The position numbers and the translations under genes were made by a program. Positions 48,538-60,390 of a DNA stretch of 64,000 bases are shown one piece after another. Source of the stretch: Planctomycetota bacterium (GTDB taxonomy: Bacteria; Planctomycetota; JAJSAM01; JAJVHW01); assembly GCA_965248445.1 (NCBI GenBank), contig CBDFJG010000003.1, positions 1,472,001 to 1,536,000 on the forward strand. The letters run 5' to 3'. Numbering within the stretch: the stretch's first letter is position 1; each line of letters begins with the position of its first letter. The notes beneath the pieces are model-generated. The model saw only the letters and a list, made by a program, of their open reading frames with translations, did no database searches and was not told where the DNA came from.

Positions 48538-49875
48538 ATGGGGGTCCAGGATCCCGCTGCCCGATTCGACCTCGATCCGACCGATCCGGGGAACGAGCCG
48601 GCATTGGTCGCGCTGCTCACGTCGCCCCAGGCGATCACCCCGGCTGCACGGCCGCTCGCGGAGTCCGCGTCGAAGATCGGGTGCACCAAACGGATCCGCG
48701 CCCACGCCGACATCGTCCTCGGCTATCACCTCTACGCCGAGCGCAAGGTCGAGCAGGGCAGCACCGCGTATCGCCGCGGGCTGCAGGTGCTCTGGGACAC
48801 GGGCTCCCCCGCCGAGCGCAACGCATGCGTCAACCTCGCCTCCGCGTGCGCGTACCAGGGCCGGCTGCTCGAGTCGCTCGTCCTCGCGCGGCGCGGACGC
48901 CACCTCGCGGCGCTCGAGCAGCACCAGCCCGCGTACTTCGTCGCGTCGCAAGCGCTTCTGCGCGCGCTCGCCGGACTCGGCGACTGGGAGCGTTTCGATG
49001 CACTCCGCGACGCCACGGCGGCGTTCGTCGCGGAGTCGGACGACGCGAACAAGCGGTTCCAGTTCGACACCGTCTGCGTCGATGCCGCCGTCGAGCGCGA
49101 GCACGCGGACGAAGCGGCGCGCCACCTCGAGTCCGCGGCGACCGCTCCGCGAGCGATGGACGACACGCGCCTGTTCGTCGAGGCGTGGGCGCACGTGCAC
49201 CTCTTGCGCGGACAGTACGACCTGGCGCTTGACCGCGCGGCCACGGCGCGCAAGGAACATCCGCGTGAAGACGAGCTCGATCGCCGGCTTCGCTTCCTGG
49301 AGATCCTCGCGGCGGCCGCAAAGGGCAACCCCGGTGCGGCGCAGGCGGCGCGGACGTTCCTCGATTCGCTGGCCGACGACACCGCAGAGACCCTGCCGCC
49401 GGGGCGCCGCATGCGCATGGCGTCCCGCATCGCACGCGACGTCGGCGAGAGCATGGACGACCGCCTGCTCGCAGCGCGCGCATACGAGGTCGCGGGCGCC
49501 GCCGCGCTCGAGCGCATGGCGGAGCTCGAGGTGTTCCGCCTGGAGTTTCCGCAAGCCCAGTCGCTCTCCGACGAGGACGCGATGCTGCTGGACGAGTACC
49601 GCCAGCGGTTCCTCGGTGAGCACGGGAGCATCCTCGACGCCGTGCGGCGGCTCTTCCGCGGCGACGCCGAAGCAGTGCGCGTGTTCCGCGAGGCGGTTCC
49701 CGGCGAGGACCCCCTTCTGCGCGCCTGCGCCTGGTGCGGAATGGTGCGGGGTCCCGAGGGGCTATGGGTCGATCTCGGCGAGTCCTCGGTGCCGGAGGGC
49801 GGATCGATGCAGGTCTCGCACGGCGTCTGCCTGACCTGCCGGACGAGCCTCGTCGGCCCCGATTCAACGGCCTGA
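48538..49875 (+). CDS. Helical (TPR-like) protein with a C-terminal CAWC...SHGVCLTC putative zinc-binding module
   Basis: ATG at 48538 within the 48028..49875 frame; CxxC and HGxCxxC motifs. Confidence 0.72.
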
Positions 49876-49928
49876 CCGGGTCGTCCTCCCTCGCGCGCGC
49901 GAAAGGGATGGGGCAGACTCAGGCAGCC

Positions 49929-52900
49929 ATGACCACGGAAGTCCATCGTTCCGACACCGCTGAGCCGCATCCCCAGCTCCCAACCGAGCCGGGTCCGGCG
50001 GCCCCGGATTCGGAGCCCGAGCGCTTCTCGCTGACCCACAAGGTCCGGCTGGTCACGGCGACCTCGCTGTTCGACGGCCACGACGCCTCGATCAACATCA
50101 TGCGCCGGATCGCGCAGAGTTGCGGCGCCGAGGTCATTCACCTCGGCCACAACCGCTCGGTGCTCGAGATCGTGGACGCGGCGATCGACGAGGATGCGCA
50201 GGGCATCGCGGTGACCTCCTACCAGGGCGGTCACAACGAGTACTTCCGCTACCTCCACGACCTGCTCGCGGAACGCGGCGGCGGACACGTGCGGATCTTC
50301 GGCGGCGGCGGCGGCGTGATCCTGCCCGAGGAGATCGAGGAGCTGCAGGCGTACGGGATCGAACGCATCTACTCGCCGGACGACGGCCGTTCGCTGGGTC
50401 TCAAGGGCATGGTTCAGGACATGCTCTCGCGCTGTGACTTCGCGACCGGCGGTGACGTGGACCTCGACGCGCTCTCTGCGGAGAACGCGCGCGACGTCGC
50501 CGTCGCGATCACCGAGGCGGAGCGGGACCCGAGCGCCATGCGGCAGAAGCTCGACGCCAAGCTGGCGGACGCGACCCGCGCGCCCGTCGTCGGCATCACA
50601 GGAACAGGCGGCGCGGGCAAATCGTCACTCATCGACGAACTGGTCCGGCGGTTCCTGCGCGACTTCGACGACAAGTCGCTCGCGATCCTGTCGGTGGATC
50701 CCTCACGCCGCAAGACCGGCGGCGCGCTGCTCGGCGACCGCATCCGCATGAACTCGGTGAGCGGAAACCCGCGCATCTACATGCGCTCGCTCGCGACACG
50801 GCAGGCCAACCTCGCGCTTGCCGGCTGCATCCTCGAAGCGCTCGACGTGCTGCAGGTCGCGGGCTTCGACCTGATCATCCTCGAGACCTCGGGCATCGGG
50901 CAGTCCGACACCGAGATCGTCGACTTCAGCTCTGTCGCCCTGTACGTGATGACGCCCGAGTACGGCGCCGCGACACAGCTCGAGAAGATCGACATGCTCG
51001 ACTTCGCCGACGTCGTCGCGATCAACAAGTTCGACCGCCGCGGCGCGCTGGACGCCCTGCGCGACGTCAAGAAGCAGTGGAAGCGTAATCACGAGCAGTT
51101 CCACATGGACGACGACGACGTGCCGGTGTTCGGCACGATGGCGTCGCAGTTCAACGACGCCGGCGCCAATGCGCTCTACCTGGCGCTGATGGCGTGCATC
51201 GTCGAGAAGACGGGCGCCGCGCTCGCCTCGACCCTCGACATCCGCACCGGGCTGCCGGATCTGCACCACGTCATCCCGCCGAGGCGCAACCGGTACCTCG
51301 CCGAGATCGCGGAGAACAACCGCGAGTACGACGCGTGGGCGCGCGAGCAAGCATCCATCGCGAGGCGGCTGTTCCAGCTCGACGGCGCGATCCGAGAGCT
51401 GGCCGACGGCGACACGACAGCCCTCGTCAGCGCGCGTGACGCTCTCGAGAAGAAGCTCGATCCGGCGTGCCGCGCGGCGCTCGACGGCTGGGACGACCTG
51501 GTGGCCAGGTACTCCGCTGCGCACTTCGCGTTCAAGGTGCGCGGCCGCGACGTGAAGGTGAAGCAGCGCTACGAGACTCTCAGTCATCTGGAGATTCCGA
51601 AGGTCGCCCTGCCGCGCTTCGAAGACTGGGGCGAGCGCCTGCGCTGGCTGCTCACCGAGAATGTCCCCGGCGCGTTCCCGTTCGCCGCGGGCGTGTTCCC
51701 ATTCAAGCGCGAGGGCGAGGACCCGACACGCATGTTCGCGGGCGAGGGCGGGCCCGAACGCACCAACCGGCGCTTCCACTACGTGTCGCTCGGGCAGCCG
51801 GCCGCGCGCCTCTCGACGGCGTTCGACTCGGTGACGCTCTACGGCGAGGACCCGGCTCGGCGTCCCGACATCTACGGCAAGGTCGGTAACGCAGGTGTGT
51901 CGATCTGCTCCCTCGACGACGCGAAGAAGCTCTACAGCGGGTTCGACCTATGCAGCGCGAAGACGTCCGTCTCGATGACCATCAACGGCCCGGCGCCGAT
52001 GCTCCTCGCGTTCTTCCTGAACGCCGCGATCGACCAACAGTGCGAGGTGTACATCCGCGAGAAGGGCCTGGCGGAGGAGATCGACGGCAAGATCGACGCG
52101 CTCTACCGCGAAAAGGGCGTGCCCCGTCCGCACTACACCGGCGAACTGCCCGAGGGCAACGACGGCCTCGGCCTTCTGCTCCTCGGAGTCACCGGCGACC
52201 AGGTGCTGTCGGCCAAGAACTACGCGGCGTGCAAGGAGCGCGCGCTCCAGTCGGTGCGCGGCACGGTGCAGGCGGACATCCTGAAGGAAGACCAGGCCCA
52301 GAATACCTGCATCTTCTCGACCGAGTTCGCACTACGGATGATGGGCGACATCCAGCAGCACTTCGTCGACCACGGAGTGCGCAACTTCTACTCCGTGTCG
52401 ATCAGCGGCTACCACATCGCCGAAGCCGGCGCGAACCCGATCACGCAGCTCGCACTGACGCTCAGCAACGGGTTCACGTTCGTCGAGTACTACCTCGCAC
52501 GCGGGATGGAGGTCGACGCGTTCGCACGGAACCTGTCGTTCTTCTTCAGCAACGGACTCGACCCCGAGTACGCGGTCATCGGCCGCGTGGCCCGCCGCAT
52601 CTGGGCCAAGGCAATGAAGCTCAAGTACGGCGCGAACGAGCGCAGCCAGAAGCTCAAGTACCACATCCAGACGAGCGGCCGCTCCCTGCACGCGCAGGAG
52701 ATCTCGTTCAACGACATCCGCACGACGCTGCAGGCGCTCTACGCGATCTATGACAACTGCAACAGCCTGCACACGAACGCGTACGACGAGGCGATCACGA
52801 CGCCCACCGAGGAGTCCGTTCGCCGTGCCATCGCGATCCAGCTGATCATCAATCGCGAACTCGGACTGGCGAAGAACGAGAACCCGCTGCAGGGCAGCTT

Positions 52901-53357
52901 CATCGCCGAGGAACTGACCGACCTCGTCGAAGAGGCGGTCTACGCGGAGTTCGAGCGCATCAGCGAGCGCGGCGGCGTCCTCGGCGCAATGGAGACGATG
53001 TACCAGCGCGGCAAGATCCAGGAGGAGTCGCTCTATTACGAGCAGCAGAAGATGAGCGGCGAGCTCCCGATCATCGGCGTGAACACGTACATCGGTCCCG
53101 ACGGCTCCCCTATCGAGAAGCCGAAGGAGGTCATGCGTTCCACCGACGAAGAGAAGGAGCAGCAGATCGCGAGCCTTGCAGCGCTGCAGAAGCGCAACGA
53201 GGCCGACCGTCCCGCCGCCCTCACTCGCCTCCAGGAAGTCGCCGAAGCCGGCGGCAACGTGTTCGAGCAGTTGATGGAGACTGTCAAGGTCGCGAGCCTC
53301 GGCCAGATCAGCGCAGCCCTCTACGACGTCGGCGGCCAGTACCGCCGGAACATGTAG
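49929..53357 (+). CDS. icmF: Fused isobutyryl-CoA mutase (B12 domain - GTPase - mutase)
   Basis: [26 protein letters not shown] (Phe specificity position) and KEDQAQNT motifs. Alternative start at 49908. Confidence 0.93.
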
Positions 53358-53365
53358 GAGCCGCC

Positions 53366-55075
53366 TTGGCGGACTCCGCTCTGCCGGACTTCCCCACGCC
53401 GTCCTACGACGACTGGCGCCGCGCCGCCGAGAAGGCGCTGCGCGGCAAGCCGTTCGAATCGCTGACATGGAAGACCGACGATGGGTTCGAGATCGCCGCC
53501 TTCGAGGGACCCGTGGAGTCGGACGTCCCCACACCGGCCGGCGGCACACCGCTCACGTGCTACTCCGTGTACGCGCTCGGCGACACGAACGATGTCGCGG
53601 ACAGGATTGAACACACCCTCGGACACGGGTTCGACCTCGTGCTCCTGGGTGCGCACGGAGCATCGATCGAGATTCGCGATCGCGCTCAGACGAGTTCCGT
53701 GCTCATCGAAGCGCCCTACTCGGGGGAGAACGATGCTGCGTGGGCCGCGTCCGCCGTTCGAGGCGGGGTCGCAGGACTCGTCTTCGGTGGCGCCCTCGAC
53801 TGCAACAGTGCCGCCATCCAGCTTGCGGACACGTTCTGCCACGTAGTCTGGTTCCTCCGGGGGCGGGAGCGTGGCGCCCACGGCCTGTCACCCGACGACC
53901 TGGCGCGTGCACTGGTGCTCCCGGTTTCCCTTGGCCCCGACGTCGTCGCGGCGACGTCGAAGCTCCGTGCCGCGAGGGCGCTCTGGCCGCGTGTCGCGGC
54001 GTCCGCGGGCGTCTCCCCCGCGGCGGCGGCAGCCACGCGCCTGCTGGCGTGCCGATCCAGCTACTGCGACACACGGTTCGAGCCGGAGAACAACCTGATT
54101 CGCGCCACGCTCAGCCTGTTCACCGGCCTGTGCGCCGGGGCCGACATCGTCCTTCTCGATTCGTACGGCGGCGGAGACGACGACTGCGCCACCGCGCAAC
54201 TTGCCCTCCATCAGGCGCATCTGATGATCGAGGAATCGCTTCTTACGGCGGTGTCGGATCCGTTCGCCGGGGCACCCGCGATCGGCGCGCTGACGAATCG
54301 GCTCTTCGATCTCAGTGTCGCGCATCTCCGAACCCTCGAGGAAGGCGGCTGGAACCGGGAGCGGGACGACGGTCCTTCATTCCGCGACCTGCTTCCGGTG
54401 ATGCAGCAAGCGGAACGGCACTACGACGACATCGTCACTCGGCGCCGCGTGATCGTCGGAGTGAACCGCTTCGCCGCCCCCGGGCGTGACACCGAGATCG
54501 AGTCGATGCATCCCGAGGAGTTCGAGTGGCACTACGCGGAGGATGGTCAAGACGAGGCCGGTTGCCATCTCGGAGTCCTGCTCGTCGCATCGGACTGCTT
54601 CGACCTGCTGCGTGACCGCGTGCTCGGACACGTCGCCGCCGGCGAGCGGCGGCCCGTCGCGCTGGTCGTCGCGGCCGGCAACCCGAAGGCCGTGCGGCCA
54701 CAGGCGGCCTTCGCCGCCGACTTCCTCCGCTGCGGCGGATTCGACGTCGAGGTCCCGGACCCGGGGGCTACTCCGAGTGACGCCACGGCACTGCTGCGCG
54801 GCCGCGTGTTCGACGCGCTTGTGATCTGCGGCGACGACGACGTCACCACCGCGATCGAAGCGGCCACCGACATGCCGTTCTACCGCGTTGGCAAGAGCGG
54901 GTCCGACTCGGACCGCGTCATCACGCGCCTCCACGAGGGTGTTGACGCCGTGGCAATCCTCGCCGACGCCCTGGACCGGGCCTGCGTGCCGCGCGTCCCG
55001 CTTCCCGTCCACGAGGACGACGTGGACGGCGAGGAGTTCCTCGCCGACGTCGCGAACCTGGGGGAGTGGGACTGA
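53366..55075 (+). CDS. mutA: Methylmalonyl-CoA mutase small (non-catalytic) subunit, divergent
   Basis: F...[28 protein letters not shown] and IVGVNRF motifs; no DxHxxG. Confidence 0.8.
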
Positions 55076-57156
55076 TGCCGTCGGTCTGGCGCACCCCCGA
55101 GGGCATCGACGTCAAGCGGAGGTATACCGCGGACGACATCGCGGACGTCCCCCATCTCGGCGGCTACCCGGGCATCGCGCCGTTCGTGCGCGGACCGTAC
55201 GCCACGATGTACACGACGCGGCCGTGGACCATCCGGCAGTACGCGGGATTCTCGACAGCCGCTGAGTCGAACGCCTTCTACCGGCGCAACCTGGCGGCGG
55301 GTCAGAAGGGCCTCAGCGTCGCGTTCGACCTGCCGACGCACCGCGGATACGACAGCGATCACGAGCGCGTGAGCGGCGACGTCGGCATGGCGGGCGTCGC
55401 GATCGACTCGATCATCGACATGCGCGCGTTGTTCGACGGCATCCCGCTCGGGACGACCTCCGTGTCGATGACCATGAACGGCGCGGTGATTCCGATCATG
55501 GCGCTCTACGTCGTCGCCGCCGAGGAGCAGGGCGTCACGCCCGAACAGCTCGCGGGCACGATCCAGAACGACGTGCTCAAGGAGTTCATGGTCCGGAACA
55601 CGTACATCTACCCGCCCGGTCCGAGCATGCGGATCGTCGGAGACGTCTTCTCGTACTGCTCCGAGCACATGCCGAAGTTCAACGCGATCTCGGTGTCCGG
55701 CTACCACATGCAAGAGGCCGGCGCGACGGCCGACATCGAGCTCGCCTACACGCTGGCCGACGGCCTCGAGTACCTGCGCACCGGACTCGACGCAGGCCTC
55801 GCGATCGACGACTTCGCCCCGCGCGTGTCGTTCTTCTTCGGCATCGGCATGAACGTGTTCATGGAGGTCGCGAAGCTCCGTGCGGCGCGGCTGCTCTGGG
55901 CGCGGATCGTCAAGCAGTTCGAGCCCGAGAACCCGAAGTCGATGATGCTGCGGACGCACTGCCAAACGTCCGGCTGGTCGCTCACGGCGCAGCAGCCCTG
56001 GAACAACGTCACGCGCACGTGCCTCGAAGCGCTCGCAGCCGTGCTCGGCGGCACGCAATCGCTGCACACCAACGCGTTGGACGAAGCGATCGCACTGCCG
56101 ACCGATTTCACGGCGCGCATCGCCCGCAACACGCAACTCGTTCTGCAGCACGAGACCGACCTCTGCAAGACGATCGATCCGCTCGGCGGCTCGTACTTCA
56201 TCGAGAAGCTCACGCACGATCTGGCTGAGCGCGCGTGGAGCCACATCCAGGAGGTCGAGGAACTCGGCGGCATGCGCCGGGCCATCGAAGCCGGTCTCCC
56301 CCAGCGCCGCATCGAGGAGGCCGCCGCTCGCAAGCAGGCGCGCATCGACACCGGCAAGGACGTCATCGTGGGCGTCAATCGCTACGTGGAGGAGGACGAG
56401 GGCGAGCCCCTCGAGACCCTCGTGGTCGACAACACCGCCGTCCGCACCGCACAGATCGAGCAACTACAGTCATTGCGCGCCTCGCGGGACAGCGCGGCCT
56501 GCCGGGCCGCGGTCGCAGCCCTGACCGAGGGTGCCCGCGGCGGCGGCAACCTGCTCGCTCTGGCCATCGATTGCGCGCGCGCGGGCGCTACTGTCGGGGA
56601 GATGAGCGATGCGATGGAAGCCGTGTTCGGCCGCCATCGCGCGGAGCCCCGCACCATCGCCGGCGTGTATGCCGCGGAGGCCGAGGACATGAGCACGATG
56701 AAGGACGTGCAGGAGCGCGTCACCGACTTCGCCCGGCGCGAGGGCCGCCGGCCGCGGCTGCTCGTCGCCAAGATCGGGCAGGACGGACACGACCGTGGCG
56801 CCAAGGTCGTCGCCACCGCGTTCGCCGACATGGGATTCGACGTGGACATGGGACCGCTGTTCCAGACGCCGGCCGAGGTCGCCCGCCAGGCCGTCGAGAA
56901 CGACGTACACGTGGCGGGCGTGTCGTCGCTCGCGGGCGGACACCGCACGCTCGTTCCGGAGTTGATCGCGGAACTGGCTCAGCTCGGCCGAGCGGACATC
57001 CTGGTCGTTGCAGGCGGCGTGATCCCGGACCAGGACAAGGAACCACTGCTCGCGGCGGGAGCCGTCGCGATCTTCGGCCCCGGCACCGTGATCCCCGACG
57101 CCGCGAACAGCGTGCTGGACCTGCTGTTCGAACGCCTCGAGGCCCGGGGGCGATAG
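55075..57156 (+). CDS. mutB: Methylmalonyl-CoA mutase large subunit
   Basis: IRQYAGF, EFMVRNT, RIARNT and QDGHDRG motifs. Confidence 0.95.
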
Positions 57157-57167
57157 AACAGGGGACG

Positions 57168-58559
57168 ATGAAGAGCAGCGATCTCGACAGACTGGCAGAG
57201 GAGGTGCGCGCGGGTCAGCGCGCGTCGCTCGCCCGCGCCATCACGCTGGTCGAGAGTACACAGGCAGACGACGCGGAGGACGCGCTCGCCCTCCTCGAGC
57301 GTCTGCTCGACCACACCGGAAAGTCGATCCGCGTCGGCATCTCCGGCGTTCCGGGCGTCGGCAAGAGCACGTTCATCGAGGCACTCGGCATGAAGCTGGT
57401 CGAGCGCGGCCACTCGGTGTCGGTGCTCGCCGTCGATCCGTCGAGCGCCGTCTCCGGAGGCAGCTTGCTCGGCGACAAGACGCGAATGGCCGACCTGTCG
57501 CGCGCGGACACCGCGTACGTGCGGCCCAGTCCTGGCGGTCGCACACTCGGCGGCGTCGCGCGGCGCACCCGCGAAGCGATGCTGGTCTGCGAAGCGGCCG
57601 GCCACGACGTCATCCTGGTCGAGACGATCGGCGTCGGACAGTCCGAGATCGCGGTGGCCGGCATGGTCGACGTGTTCCTGCTGCTGTCGCTGGCGGGAGC
57701 GGGCGACGAACTGCAGGGCATCAAGCGCGGAATCACGGAGATGGCGGACGTCGTGGTCGTCAACAAGGCGGACGGCGACAACGAGGAGCGCGCCAAGCAA
57801 GCCGCCGCGGAGCTGAACGCCGCCGTCGCCATGCTGCGCCCCTCGCCGCTCGCAGAGGGCGAGACGCACCGGCCCGTGCTCACGTGCTCATCGCGCAGCG
57901 GCGACGGCATCGACGCAGTGTGGGACGCCGTCGCCGCGCTGCACGCGGGTGCGAAGAGCGACGGCCGCCTCGACGAGCGCCGCCGCCGCCAGCGTGTGCA
58001 CTGGCTCGACGACGCGGTCGACGACCTGCTTCGCACACGCCTCGACTCGGACCCGGACACGCGCGGGGCCCGAGAGTCGCTCGCCCGCGCCGTCCGCGAG
58101 GGCGCTCTCTCCCCGCTCGCCGCCGCGCACCAGATCGTCGACGTGTTCCAGGGCGAGGACGCCGTGGACACCACGTCACTCGGCGAGACCTTTCCCTTCC
58201 ACGACACCGACGCCGCCCGCGAGTGGCTGACGCGCGCGGTGGCCACCGGTGCGGGGAACGTGCTCGCGACGGCTCGCGCCATCGCGACCGGGCCGGGGGA
58301 TCCTGCTCCGACGAACGAGCAGCGCCTCACGCACCTGGCCGAGCTCTCGGAGATGTCGCCGCATGACGCCCTTGCAGGAGCCGTGGGCGTGCACCGTCAG
58401 TTCGTGACGGGCGACGTGCCTCCGGACGACGTCCGCTCCGCGCTCGACCGGCTGTCTGATGCCGCTCCCGAGCTGGCCAAGCGCGACCGCGCCGCACCGG
58501 ACTCGCTCGACGTTCTCGAGTCGCTCATGCAGCTGGAAGAGGATCTGCTCGACCGCTGA
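57168..58559 (+). CDS. meaB: Methylmalonyl-CoA mutase-associated GTPase with a ~131 aa C-terminal extension
   Basis: GVPGVGKS, VDPSS, GDKTRM, ETIGVGQSE and NKAD motifs. Confidence 0.9.
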   Translation: MKSSDLDRLAEEVRAGQRASLARAITLVESTQADDAEDALALLERLLDHTGKSIRVGISGVPGVGKSTFIEALGMKLVERGHSVSVLAVDPSSAVSGGSLLGDKTRMADLSRADTAYVRPSPGGRTLGGVARRTREAMLVCEAAGHDVILVETIGVGQSEIAVAGMVDVFLLLSLAGAGDELQGIKRGITEMADVVVVNKADGDNEERAKQAAAELNAAVAMLRPSPLAEGETHRPVLTCSSRSGDGIDAVWDAVAALHAGAKSDGRLDERRRRQRVHWLDDAVDDLLRTRLDSDPDTRGARESLARAVREGALSPLAAAHQIVDVFQGEDAVDTTSLGETFPFHDTDAAREWLTRAVATGAGNVLATARAIATGPGDPAPTNEQRLTHLAELSEMSPHDALAGAVGVHRQFVTGDVPPDDVRSALDRLSDAAPELAKRDRAAPDSLDVLESLMQLEEDLLDR

Positions 58560-58584
58560 CCCGTGGGCTCGTAGCGTGCGCTGC

Positions 58585-59061
58585 ATGACCCGCATCACGA
58601 CTCTGCTCGCTCTGACATGTGTCCTCGGCGCGCTCCTCGCGTGCTCCCCCGACGCTCCCGCGCCGGTCACACCCGCCCCGATCGCTCCAGCACCGGCACC
58701 GGCCCCGGATGAGGCGGCGCCGGAGCCCGACCCCGCGCCCGCCGCGCTGCCCGAGATCGTCTACTACCAGATCGGTCCGCAATGACCCTTCTGCCAGCGC
58801 ATTGCCACCGCCGTGAGCGAGTTGGCGACGGACTACGAGGGCAAGATCACGACGCGCATCGAGCCCGCCGGCAGCGAAGAGGGCCAGGCCGCGAAGGTGA
58901 CGTACGGCTGGGATCGGAAGCTGCACGGTCTCGTGGCGCTGCTGCCTGACGGCACCCTGGTCGCGAACCTGCCCGGCCACAGCTATGCGCAAGATGTCGC
59001 GAGCGCCAAGGTCGAGGTGAAGAAGGCGGTCGAGGAACTGCTCGCCGCGAACGCGCGCTGA
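58585..59061 (+). CDS. Thioredoxin-like lipoprotein, probable selenoprotein (U-P-F-C; TGA at 58783-58785)
   Basis: Two in-frame ORFs are separated only by TGA, which is followed by PFC. Lipobox LLAC and a hairpin just after the TGA. Confidence 0.78.
58792..58827 (+). promoter_or_regulatory. Putative bacterial SECIS hairpin
   Basis: tgccagc/gttggcg lower stem, gccac/gtgagc upper stem and a cgcc loop 24 nt after the TGA. Confidence 0.5.
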
Positions 59062-59139
59062 CGTCGCGGGTTCGACGGGCGGGGTGTGGAGCCCCCGACC
59101 GTTCCTGGGCATCGATCACCCTAGGCGTTCTACCCGCCC

Positions 59140-60390
59140 CTATCTGAAGACGCGGCAGTTCGGATGACGGCCGCGGAATGCCGCGACTGCGTCGGCGGTC
59201 GTCTTGGTCCCGCGCAGGTCGAGGCTGCGCAGCGCCGACAACTCGTCGAGCACCTCGAGCGAACGATCCGTCACCCCGGTGAACTGGAGCATCAGCACCT
59301 CCAGCTTCTGCAGGTTGCGCAGGTTCTCGACGCCCGTGTCCGTCACGTTCGGGCAGCTGTAGATTCCGAGCCGCTCGAGATTGACGAGATCGCGCAGGTG
59401 CACCATTCCGGCGTCCGTCATCGTGGTGCTCGCGTTCAGGTCGCGCAGCCCCTTCATCTCGGCGAGGAACTGCAGCCCGGACTCGGTCACCTTGACCCCA
59501 CGCAGCCCGAGCTTCTCGATCGACGTCTGCGTCCGCAGGTGCGCCATCCCGGCGTCGGTGATGTTCTTGTTGTGCAGCAGGCTCAGCTCTCGCAGTTCGA
59601 ACGACTCGAGCCGTGCCAGGCCGGCATCCGAGACCCCGCTGAAGCCGACGCCGATGCTCTCGATCGGCAGGCCCTCGAGGTGCTTCAGACCTTCGTCCGT
59701 GATCTTGGTGCCGTCGAGGCGGATGTCGCGCAGCGTCGCGAGGTCCGCAACGGCCTCGAGCCCCGTGTCGGTCACCTGCGTGTTCATCATGCCGAGGCTC
59801 TCGATCGTCTTCGACTGCGAGAGCGCCGCGAGTCCTGCGTCCCCCACGATGGTCCCCTGCAGTTCGAGGTTGCGTAGCGACGGGTGATCCGCGAGCAGCG
59901 CGAGAGAGGCGTCCGTCACACCCGTGCCGCGGAGATTCAGATACGTCAGCGACGGGAGCTGCGCGATGTGCTTCAGATCGTCGGATGAGACGTTCGTGCG
60001 CGAGAGGTCGAGCGCACGCAGGTGGCGCAGCTGTTCCGCCGTCATCCCCGCGAACTTCGCGGGCGCCAGATTGCTCAGCCAGGCGATCGCAGCGAGTTGG
60101 TCGGGGTTGCTCGGTGACGTCGCCGGCTCGAGCGGCAGCGCTGCACCGGGCGGAGGCGGTGCCGACATCAACCGGTTGATCTCGCCGCGCGCGGCGCTGA
60201 GCTCGACTTCGAGCCGCGTGATCCGCCGCCAGGTCGGCAGATCGTCTATGGGAGCACCCGCCGGAAGTTCGCCGCCGTCGTCCTCCGAATCGGTCCCGGC
60301 GACGCTCGCCGCGAACAGCCCGGCGACGAACCCAACGGCAGCCGCGATCAACACCACGAGAAAGAAGGGCGCCGCATTCGGTCTGGCCAT
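59140..60390 (-). CDS. Membrane-anchored leucine-rich repeat protein
   Basis: N-terminal TM helix and about eleven LxxLxLxxTxVTDxGL repeats. Confidence 0.9.
   Translation of the reverse strand: MARPNAAPFFLVVLIAAAVGFVAGLFAASVAGTDSEDDGGELPAGAPIDDLPTWRRITRLEVELSAARGEINRLMSAPPPPGAALPLEPATSPSNPDQLAAIAWLSNLAPAKFAGMTAEQLRHLRALDLSRTNVSSDDLKHIAQLPSLTYLNLRGTGVTDASLALLADHPSLRNLELQGTIVGDAGLAALSQSKTIESLGMMNTQVTDTGLEAVADLATLRDIRLDGTKITDEGLKHLEGLPIESIGVGFSGVSDAGLARLESFELRELSLLHNKNITDAGMAHLRTQTSIEKLGLRGVKVTESGLQFLAEMKGLRDLNASTTMTDAGMVHLRDLVNLERLGIYSCPNVTDTGVENLRNLQKLEVLMLQFTGVTDRSLEVLDELSALRSLDLRGTKTTADAVAAFRGRHPNCRVFR

Follow-up and report, generated by a model that had tools for sequence, protein, structure and literature searches.

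A planctomycete gene split at an in-frame TGA very probably specifies a thioredoxin-like selenoprotein tethered to the membrane, with two histidines predicted to flank its active site

Thioredoxin-like proteins with a UxxC motif, where U is selenocysteine (Sec), are a well-known kind of selenoprotein. The Sec-containing thioredoxin, glutaredoxin and redoxin families (PF00085, PF00462 and PF08534) stand in Table 1 of a 2026 catalogue of 119 entries, which also includes Sec in metal-binding proteins (PMC13188914). According to that paper, the bacterial SECIS consensus is a loop of 3-9 nt with G at its first two positions, lying 16-37 nt after the UGA and folding at -7.5 kcal/mol or below. Most of the catalogue's named families are contained in NCBIfam release 20.

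Here we describe a gene in a 64,000-nucleotide stretch of DNA from a Planctomycetota bacterium, the window, whose predicted product has in common with these families the fold, the placing of UxxC at the start of helix 1 and a SECIS element inside the open reading frame, read by SelB. The window family differs from the Sec thioredoxins in the absence of the cis-proline and in having two conserved histidines, a lipoprotein signal and a long variable linker, and its fold is minimal, without the first strand and helix of thioredoxin.

Sco proteins (Sco1/SenC, PF02630) have an extracytoplasmic, membrane-tethered thioredoxin fold, as is predicted for the window family. In Sco a histidine occupies the cis-proline position, a site at which alignments of the window family differ by one residue. 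Sco proteins combine copper binding with thiol redox activity, as listed in Table 1 of PMC2757866. Sco carries CxxxC whereas the window family carries UxxC, lacks the peroxiredoxin-like insertion and has a second invariant histidine. Furthermore, the window family lies outside oxidase operons and occurs in genomes without a Sco or COX2 match, and its profile showed no similarity to the Sco protein of the same genome (hhalign probability 1.3%).

The best NCBIfam match of the window protein is SaoT (NF040730), a small thioredoxin-like protein with UxxC forms, whose authors propose a handling of metal species (Haft and Gwadz, bioRxiv 10.1101/2022.07.06.499078). At 16.5 bits the match falls short of the cut-off of 65, and it is confined to the motif and helix. 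SaoT has a length of about 85 aa, usually carries CPCC and belongs to a nine-gene operon of anaerobes, whereas genes of the window family stand alone and bear a lipoprotein signal. TsoX (NF045809), HUIPC (NF047660), GOS_C (NF045500) and ArsF (NF040494) are thioredoxin-like as well, the first three being catalogued UxxC selenoproteins. Among 42 strong family members, weak matches were found to TsoX (4/42, best E 7e-4), HUIPC (1/42, E 0.04) and ArsF (2/42, E 6e-5); GOS_C was not among the 25 of 33 NCBIfam families listed for them.

The window protein falls below all Pfam and NCBIfam cut-offs, with Pfam thioredoxin-type models at 12.7-15 bits against 22.9-23.5. The best E-values of the 42 members were 5.9e-5 among the 25 of 33 NCBIfam families listed and 1.1e-6 in Pfam (Glutaredoxin); the member with this best Pfam match, probably the Cys form P0044 (PF00462), may pass the cut-off. 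No model of NCBIfam release 20 or Pfam matches the family, so that it stays as unrecognised as it was in the first-pass annotation, and PHROGs gave no match. It could be matched to none of the 119 entries in the available part of PMC13188914, in whose text 'lipoprotein' and 'planctomycet' are absent. In the portions at hand, the deep-Sep paper presents nine new families, none called thioredoxin (PMC12013277), the SAO preprint and PMC4807772 describe other proteins, and PMC6295897 holds nothing on the family. Literature searches on families of selenoproteins, on the selenoproteomes of planctomycetes and on Sec-DsbD listed no description of it; outside this comparison, and possibly bearing on novelty, lie the supplements, Haft and Tolstoy 2025 and Deng et al. 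2026, cited as giving candidates from 44,000 MAGs. The family is thus new within a well-known kind, and its active site is unusual.

The gene and its family

Two standard ORFs of the window, 58459..58785 and 58813..59061, share one frame on the forward strand. The first-pass annotation had joined them by reading through the TGA that ends the first, and its coordinates, frame, 158-aa translation, LLAC signal, linker and motifs all match the sequence. The full gene (58585..59061, +) starts at ATG 58585, has an in-frame TGA at 58783-58785 and ends at TGA 59059-59061; it encodes 158 aa if TGA 58783 specifies Sec, and homologues align across this codon. A predicted lipoprotein signal peptide (58585..58644) ends in the lipobox LLA-C20 (LLAC, residues 17-20; Cys codon 58642-58644), from which export and lipidation of the protein are predicted. 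It is followed by an unconserved Pro/Ala-rich linker (58645..58749) and a 103-aa domain (58750..59058). The U67-P-F-C70 motif lies at 58783..58794, with the Sec codon TGA at 58783-58785 and the Cys70 codon at 58792-58794, and the read-through protein contains the motifs IVYYQIGPQ-U-PFC, HGLV and LPGH.

A codon-usage score trained on the genome favours coding on either side of the TGA, with +4.1 over the 11 codons before it and +31.6 over the 91 codons after it; the signal plus linker scored about 0. The upstream ATG 58459 was rejected as the start, the score of 58459-58584 being negative (-10.8). Also rejected were the shifted frames, which scored -74 and -55, and an overlapping minus-strand ORF of 195 aa, which scored -26.

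A single-sequence search of 61 genomes gave seven relatives with one TGA each. When the profile of these eight sequences was searched against 401 genomes from the phylum, 93 matches were obtained; no more than 12 candidates were scored per genome and members may be missed. The strong set comprised 42 matches in 41 genomes, all covering the domain at E <= 2.5e-9. In keeping with the proposed read-through these relatives align across the motif codon, which is TGA in 41 and TGC in one (33 and one without the eight seeds). The 51 weaker matches (E >= 6e-8) were left out of the family counts; one of them, on inspection, was a classical WCGPC thioredoxin. In metagenomes, a DNA pattern that allowed TGA, TGC or TGT found 78 loci, of which 71 were family members by HMM, with 70 TGA and one TGC (66 and one distinct). 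A pattern requiring TGA found 112 loci in species genomes; 76 were confirmed and the other 36 lacked the domain, having matched by chance.

A lipobox-like Cys behind a hydrophobic stretch was recognised, with a simple hydrophobicity rule, in 138 of 151 family members, seven being cut by a contig end and six lacking it; a stricter rule found the lipobox in 80 of 94. The linker ranges from 4 to 125 aa, with a median of 24. Named records with the family are almost all Planctomycetota MAGs. Two Myxococcales records are among the 80 loci listed with titles, and no match came from 250 other genomes sampled in the phylum to which the Myxococcales carrier G401 belongs. G401 itself has two copies of a divergent Myxococcales subgroup (L138, L181 and L192), which shows U-M-N-C, has RRDH where the others have PGH, and carries an RRRE-type N-terminus ahead of the lipobox.

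A library of 1.84 billion proteins yielded 40 matches, mostly C-terminal fragments that start downstream of the TGA, and in addition five Cys forms of full length. Public collections store the family mostly as N- or C-terminal fragments, and since Sec stands in about 98% of the unbiased matches, finders based on Cys homologues would tend to miss it.

The whole stretch was found identical in contigs of three runs of one sample, possibly the source of this very DNA. Four other studies contributed one run each with a single related contig across the TGA, and no other letter is listed at 58783-58785; where an ordinary TGC had to be considered, the contigs carry TGA.

Recoding of TGA 58783 and the SECIS element

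The genome (5.4 Mb, 92% complete, 68-69% GC) holds selA, selB, selD and the tRNA-Sec gene selC, the four genes named in the first-pass annotation, all over curated cut-offs. The tRNA-Sec has the anticodon UCA, and the SelD gene has an in-frame TGA of its own. We found selA in 39 of the 40 TGA-carrying genomes, the sole exception being a genome 84% complete, and also in the Cys-form genome. Over the phylum as a whole the figure is about 285-290 of 401 genomes, by which Sec use is widespread in the sampled Planctomycetota.

The predicted SECIS element in its conserved register (58802..58828, +) has a stem of +24..+26 with +32..+34, counted from the TGA, and a loop CGUGA at 58812-58816 (+27..+31), within which an inner C27-G30 pair encloses GU. 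The GTG at 58813-58815, at which ORF callers begin the C-terminal fragment, is this conserved GU-containing loop. When +17..+43 is folded, the conserved register is the minimum-energy structure at -10.0 kcal/mol, which, with the loop 26 nt after the UGA, lies within the published consensus. The pairs +24/+34, +25/+33, +26/+32 and +27/+30 hold in 38-40 of 41 Sec homologues. Both partners of pair +27/+30 are third-codon positions, and they are complementary in 40 of 41 homologues, where 22 are expected (0/5000 shuffles); none of 18 other neighbouring third-position pairs behaves in this way. On the tree this pair switches type 10 times while its two positions undergo 11 and 12 changes, and the complementarity therefore goes beyond kinship alone. 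The four pairs together with G28 are present in 140 of 149 distinct Sec genes as against neither of two Cys genes.

The hairpin proposed at first (loop CGCC at +24) does exist. It is the minimum-energy fold of windows of 36-68 nt (z -2.25 at 36 nt, -0.37 at 68 nt), with pair probabilities of 0.98-0.99 in the window gene. It was rejected as the SECIS of the family, its 13 pairs holding in only 27-71% of the 41 Sec homologues; the claim of a SECIS-like hairpin after the TGA is hence retained, with the loop moved to 58812-58816. In a 50-nt window of this gene the conserved register is the less stable of the two, at -10.6 versus -18.2 kcal/mol, and it is the best fold when only +17..+43, or a 98-nt window, is folded. 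We infer that a paused ribosome covering the first bases after the UGA favours the conserved register. A scan of 49000-60000 against Rfam found nothing.

Collectively, the Sec machinery of the genome, the TGA kept in homologues and the TGA in the contigs uphold the recoding first claimed, and to judge from the sequence evidence TGA 58783 is almost certainly read as Sec. The gene, split by software at this apparent stop, thus very probably specifies a thioredoxin-like protein that contains selenium and is tethered to the membrane.

Fold, cis-proline column and conserved histidines

AlphaFold2, with 42 sequences, predicts a thioredoxin fold of beta-alpha-beta-alpha-beta-beta-alpha order for the domain at 58750..59058, with pLDDT 96.7 and the motif at the start of helix 1. 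Thioredoxins were on top of the 72 Foldseek matches at E<=0.001, were superposed by VIA-align with Z 12.1 at rmsd 1.9 over 88 and with Z 10.6 at rmsd 2.0 over 93, and were the proteins found in a profile search of solved structures (best E 3e-6). The ESM Atlas neighbours of a natural Cys homologue are thioredoxin-family clusters. The predicted fold and the structural matches thus agree with the thioredoxin active-site layout that had been read from the letters.

Among 147 aligned members, U/C67, C70, G115 and H132 are conserved in all 147, H114 in 145 and Y60 in 142. The DNA search patterns impose part of this conservation, including part of the UxxC/CxxC dithiol motif (147/147), though not that of H132, and the unbiased 42 sequences show the same picture (dithiol motif 42/42). 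His114-Gly115 is encoded at 58924..58929 and Gly131-His132, after the last strand, at 58975..58980. By MAFFT alignment residue 114 occupies the cis-proline column; it is His in 40 of the 42 unbiased members; the exceptions in the family are Lys in one Cys form and Ser in one Sec paralogue.

In a MAFFT profile alignment His114 falls on the proline of 13 out of 13 thioredoxin-fold proteins of the same genome. A hairpin glycine follows nine residues after the histidine in 86 of 92 members, and nine after the proline in 6 of the 13 comparison proteins. The register differs by tool, HMMER placing Gly115 on the proline and hhalign leaving a gap; there is no proline either way, and none was found at or beside the site in any of the 92 members with HG.

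The two conserved histidines are predicted to flank the active site, and from thioredoxin geometry we take His114 and His132 to line the groove beside Sec67. The site six residues before the first Cys is acidic in thioredoxin, and is Tyr or Phe in the window family. The UPFC motif resembles that of glutaredoxin. A 2007 study by Su and colleagues is said to have found that Pro75His raises copper binding by thioredoxin.

In PMC2757866 the cis-proline is described as better conserved than CxxC itself, as a likely binding element for the polypeptide substrate and as a possible safeguard against metal binding, and Arg is given as its replacement in peroxiredoxins. A histidine in place of this proline, together with the invariant His132, would suggest a metal or small-molecule site rather than protein disulfide exchange. 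The first-pass annotation had called the product an exported Sec oxidoreductase. Sec and lipoprotein export find support; an ordinary thiol-disulfide 'oxidoreductase' is doubtful because the cis-proline column, by MAFFT, holds an almost invariant histidine.

Possible functions, genomic setting and other selenoproteins

Our preferred reading, held tentatively, is that the reduced Sec/Cys/His/His site binds a soft metal, most plausibly Cu(I), and is kept reduced by DsbD. SelB would read the SECIS hairpin and insert Sec at the UGA, and the LLAC signal would have the protein exported and lipidated, leaving the domain on a flexible periplasmic tether. Sec67 and Cys70, with His114 and His132, may then form a candidate soft-metal site in the cell envelope, whose Sec/Cys pair a DsbD-type membrane protein, itself apparently Sec-containing in this genome, would keep reduced. 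The selenolate, thiolate and imidazoles might bind, buffer or hand on the metal in a Sco-like manner not specific for CuA. On the side of this reading, DsbD/CcdA was matched in 40 of 41 other carrier genomes and in this one, a presence that does not discriminate because it is common (10 of 14 controls), and five natural Cys-form homologues keep both histidines, one of them with a His-rich C-terminal tail. Against it count the absence of a recurring metal-handling neighbour, the cis-Pro register on which the tools are not unanimous, the glutaredoxin-like UPFC, the lack of similarity to Sco, and the Lys and Ser that replace His114 in one Cys form and one Sec paralogue. A bolder form, in which the protein is a natural thioredoxin-fold selenium analogue of Sco of independent origin, holding copper or another soft metal by selenolate, thiolate and two imidazoles within a periplasmic reducing chain, DsbD included, that is rebuilt throughout with Sec, is speculative and rather unlikely.

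A dedicated role in CuA assembly was considered and found no support. Sco was matched in only 29 of 41 carriers, compared with 211 of 401 genomes overall, and among 10 tested carriers without Sco a COX2 match was missing from 7, so such a role is unlikely; here too the missing similarity to Sco was weighed.

The product could instead be an ordinary extracytoplasmic thiol-disulfide reductase or isomerase of the TlpA/ResA/DsbE kind, reduced by DsbD and repairing or reducing envelope proteins, in which Sec compensates for the missing cis-proline. The UxxC that opens the helix, with Cys70 present in all 147 members, the thioredoxins among the top structural matches and Atlas neighbours, the many exported UxxC proteins and the Sec-DsbD of this genome all argue in this direction, and a lone gene fits a housekeeping enzyme. 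We nevertheless consider it somewhat unlikely. The proline missing from all 92 members with HG is kept in all 13 comparison proteins of the same genome, and its loss abolishes turnover in DsbA (PMC13269488). Moreover, Sec is not the compensation for the missing proline, because the Cys forms lack the proline as well.

The protein might also use Sec to reduce some small oxidised compound (peroxide, sulfoxide, metalloid oxyanion or organohalide), His114 acting like the peroxiredoxin Arg and Cys70 resolving a selenenic intermediate, a reading that is in our judgement improbable. In its favour a polar catalytic residue replaces the cis-proline in peroxiredoxins (PMC2757866). Near-exclusive Sec use suits catalysis, and the Tyr/Phe six residues before the first Cys is in line with it. 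Sec is so widely used in this genome, however, that little about function follows from its presence; the peroxiredoxin insertion is absent from the fold, and no peroxiredoxin, GPx, Msr, ArsC or deiodinase match occurs among the families listed for the 42 members (25 of 33 in NCBIfam).

The gene starts 25 nt after a MeaB-like gene on the same strand, downstream of genes with mutase, MeaB and B12-binding domains. The stretch 49734-58559 (+) encodes a 1207-aa fused mutase with B12-binding and MeaB domains, which we take to be IcmF-like, as well as a pair of small and large mutase subunits and a MeaB protein extended by a further C-terminal region. A promoter and terminator scan found none, and no terminator-like site lies between the MeaB-like gene and the window gene. 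In G183 (L070, G183:C10:161000-175000) two family copies, one with Ser for His114, lie 3.2 kb apart, and a deiodinase-like gene split at a TGA stands about 1.2 kb beyond them.

The position close behind the MeaB-like gene, together with the three genes between the two G183 copies, read by eye as cobT, cobS and cobC, could mean that the protein serves specifically the adjacent B12-dependent mutases or has a part in cobalamin or cobalt handling. We regard this as very improbable: neither mutase nor MeaB was matched in the loci of 48 relatives, and mutases are cytoplasmic while the window protein bears an export signal. Around 151 genes of the family, 206 immediate neighbours were grouped into 159 clusters of at most six members, with no recurring neighbour and near-random orientation (57:46 upstream, 58:53 downstream). 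Representatives of 147 of the 159 clusters, compared with Pfam, showed no theme, B12 or other, and no recurrent metal-handling gene, with one heavy-metal-type ATPase among the 147. The gene is indeed placed after a B12 mutase cluster, as first noted, but it looks to stand alone, and the B12 link looks incidental because no mutase gene lies beside any relative checked.

Scarcely tenable is a true stop at TGA 58783, in a pseudogene or through a sequencing error: the window's own SECIS can take a competing, stabler register, but the same TGA recurs in 149 distinct genes, many with 22-56% protein identity to the window's domain, the SECIS pairs covary, the downstream frames are intact and the contigs show TGA.

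The genome has about 25-27 candidate selenoprotein genes, mostly for signal-bearing UxxC thioredoxin-like proteins. Further candidates are SelD, SelW-like, ArsC-like, DUF3179-like, deiodinase-like and three AhpD-like proteins, and of 20 candidates scanned 11 were without an NCBIfam match at E<=1e-4. The Sec-DsbD (C1:397668-399623, -; TGA at C1:397943) has signal, N-terminal, membrane and thioredoxin domains, the last with U-I-N-C, and falls below the TsoB and DsbD cut-offs. One in-frame TGA is present in it in 7 of 7 genomes of the same family and in many others of the phylum, and the position is TGA in 10 and TGC in one of 11 relatives; no entry by the name of DsbD was found in the available part of the 2026 catalogue (PMC13188914). 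The gene at C4:226645-226911 (-), which closes a cytochrome oxidase/Sco gene run, codes for a small protein that has a signal peptide, one membrane helix, U-P-N-C right at the N-terminus predicted for the mature form and no NCBIfam match; it is possibly a Sec copper-handling factor. A small membrane protein with GWYQSACGT-U-G (CxxU), encoded at C3:67948-68325 (+), also has no NCBIfam match.

An old idea holds that the cis-proline of thioredoxin keeps metal off the active site, and the window family is a natural test of it: evolution seems to have placed a histidine there, beside Sec, which 145 of 147 sequences retain. Together with the Sec-DsbD, about 25 other candidates and the frequency of selA in the phylum, the family suggests that uncultured planctomycetes possess a selenium-rich envelope redox system, hidden by annotation.
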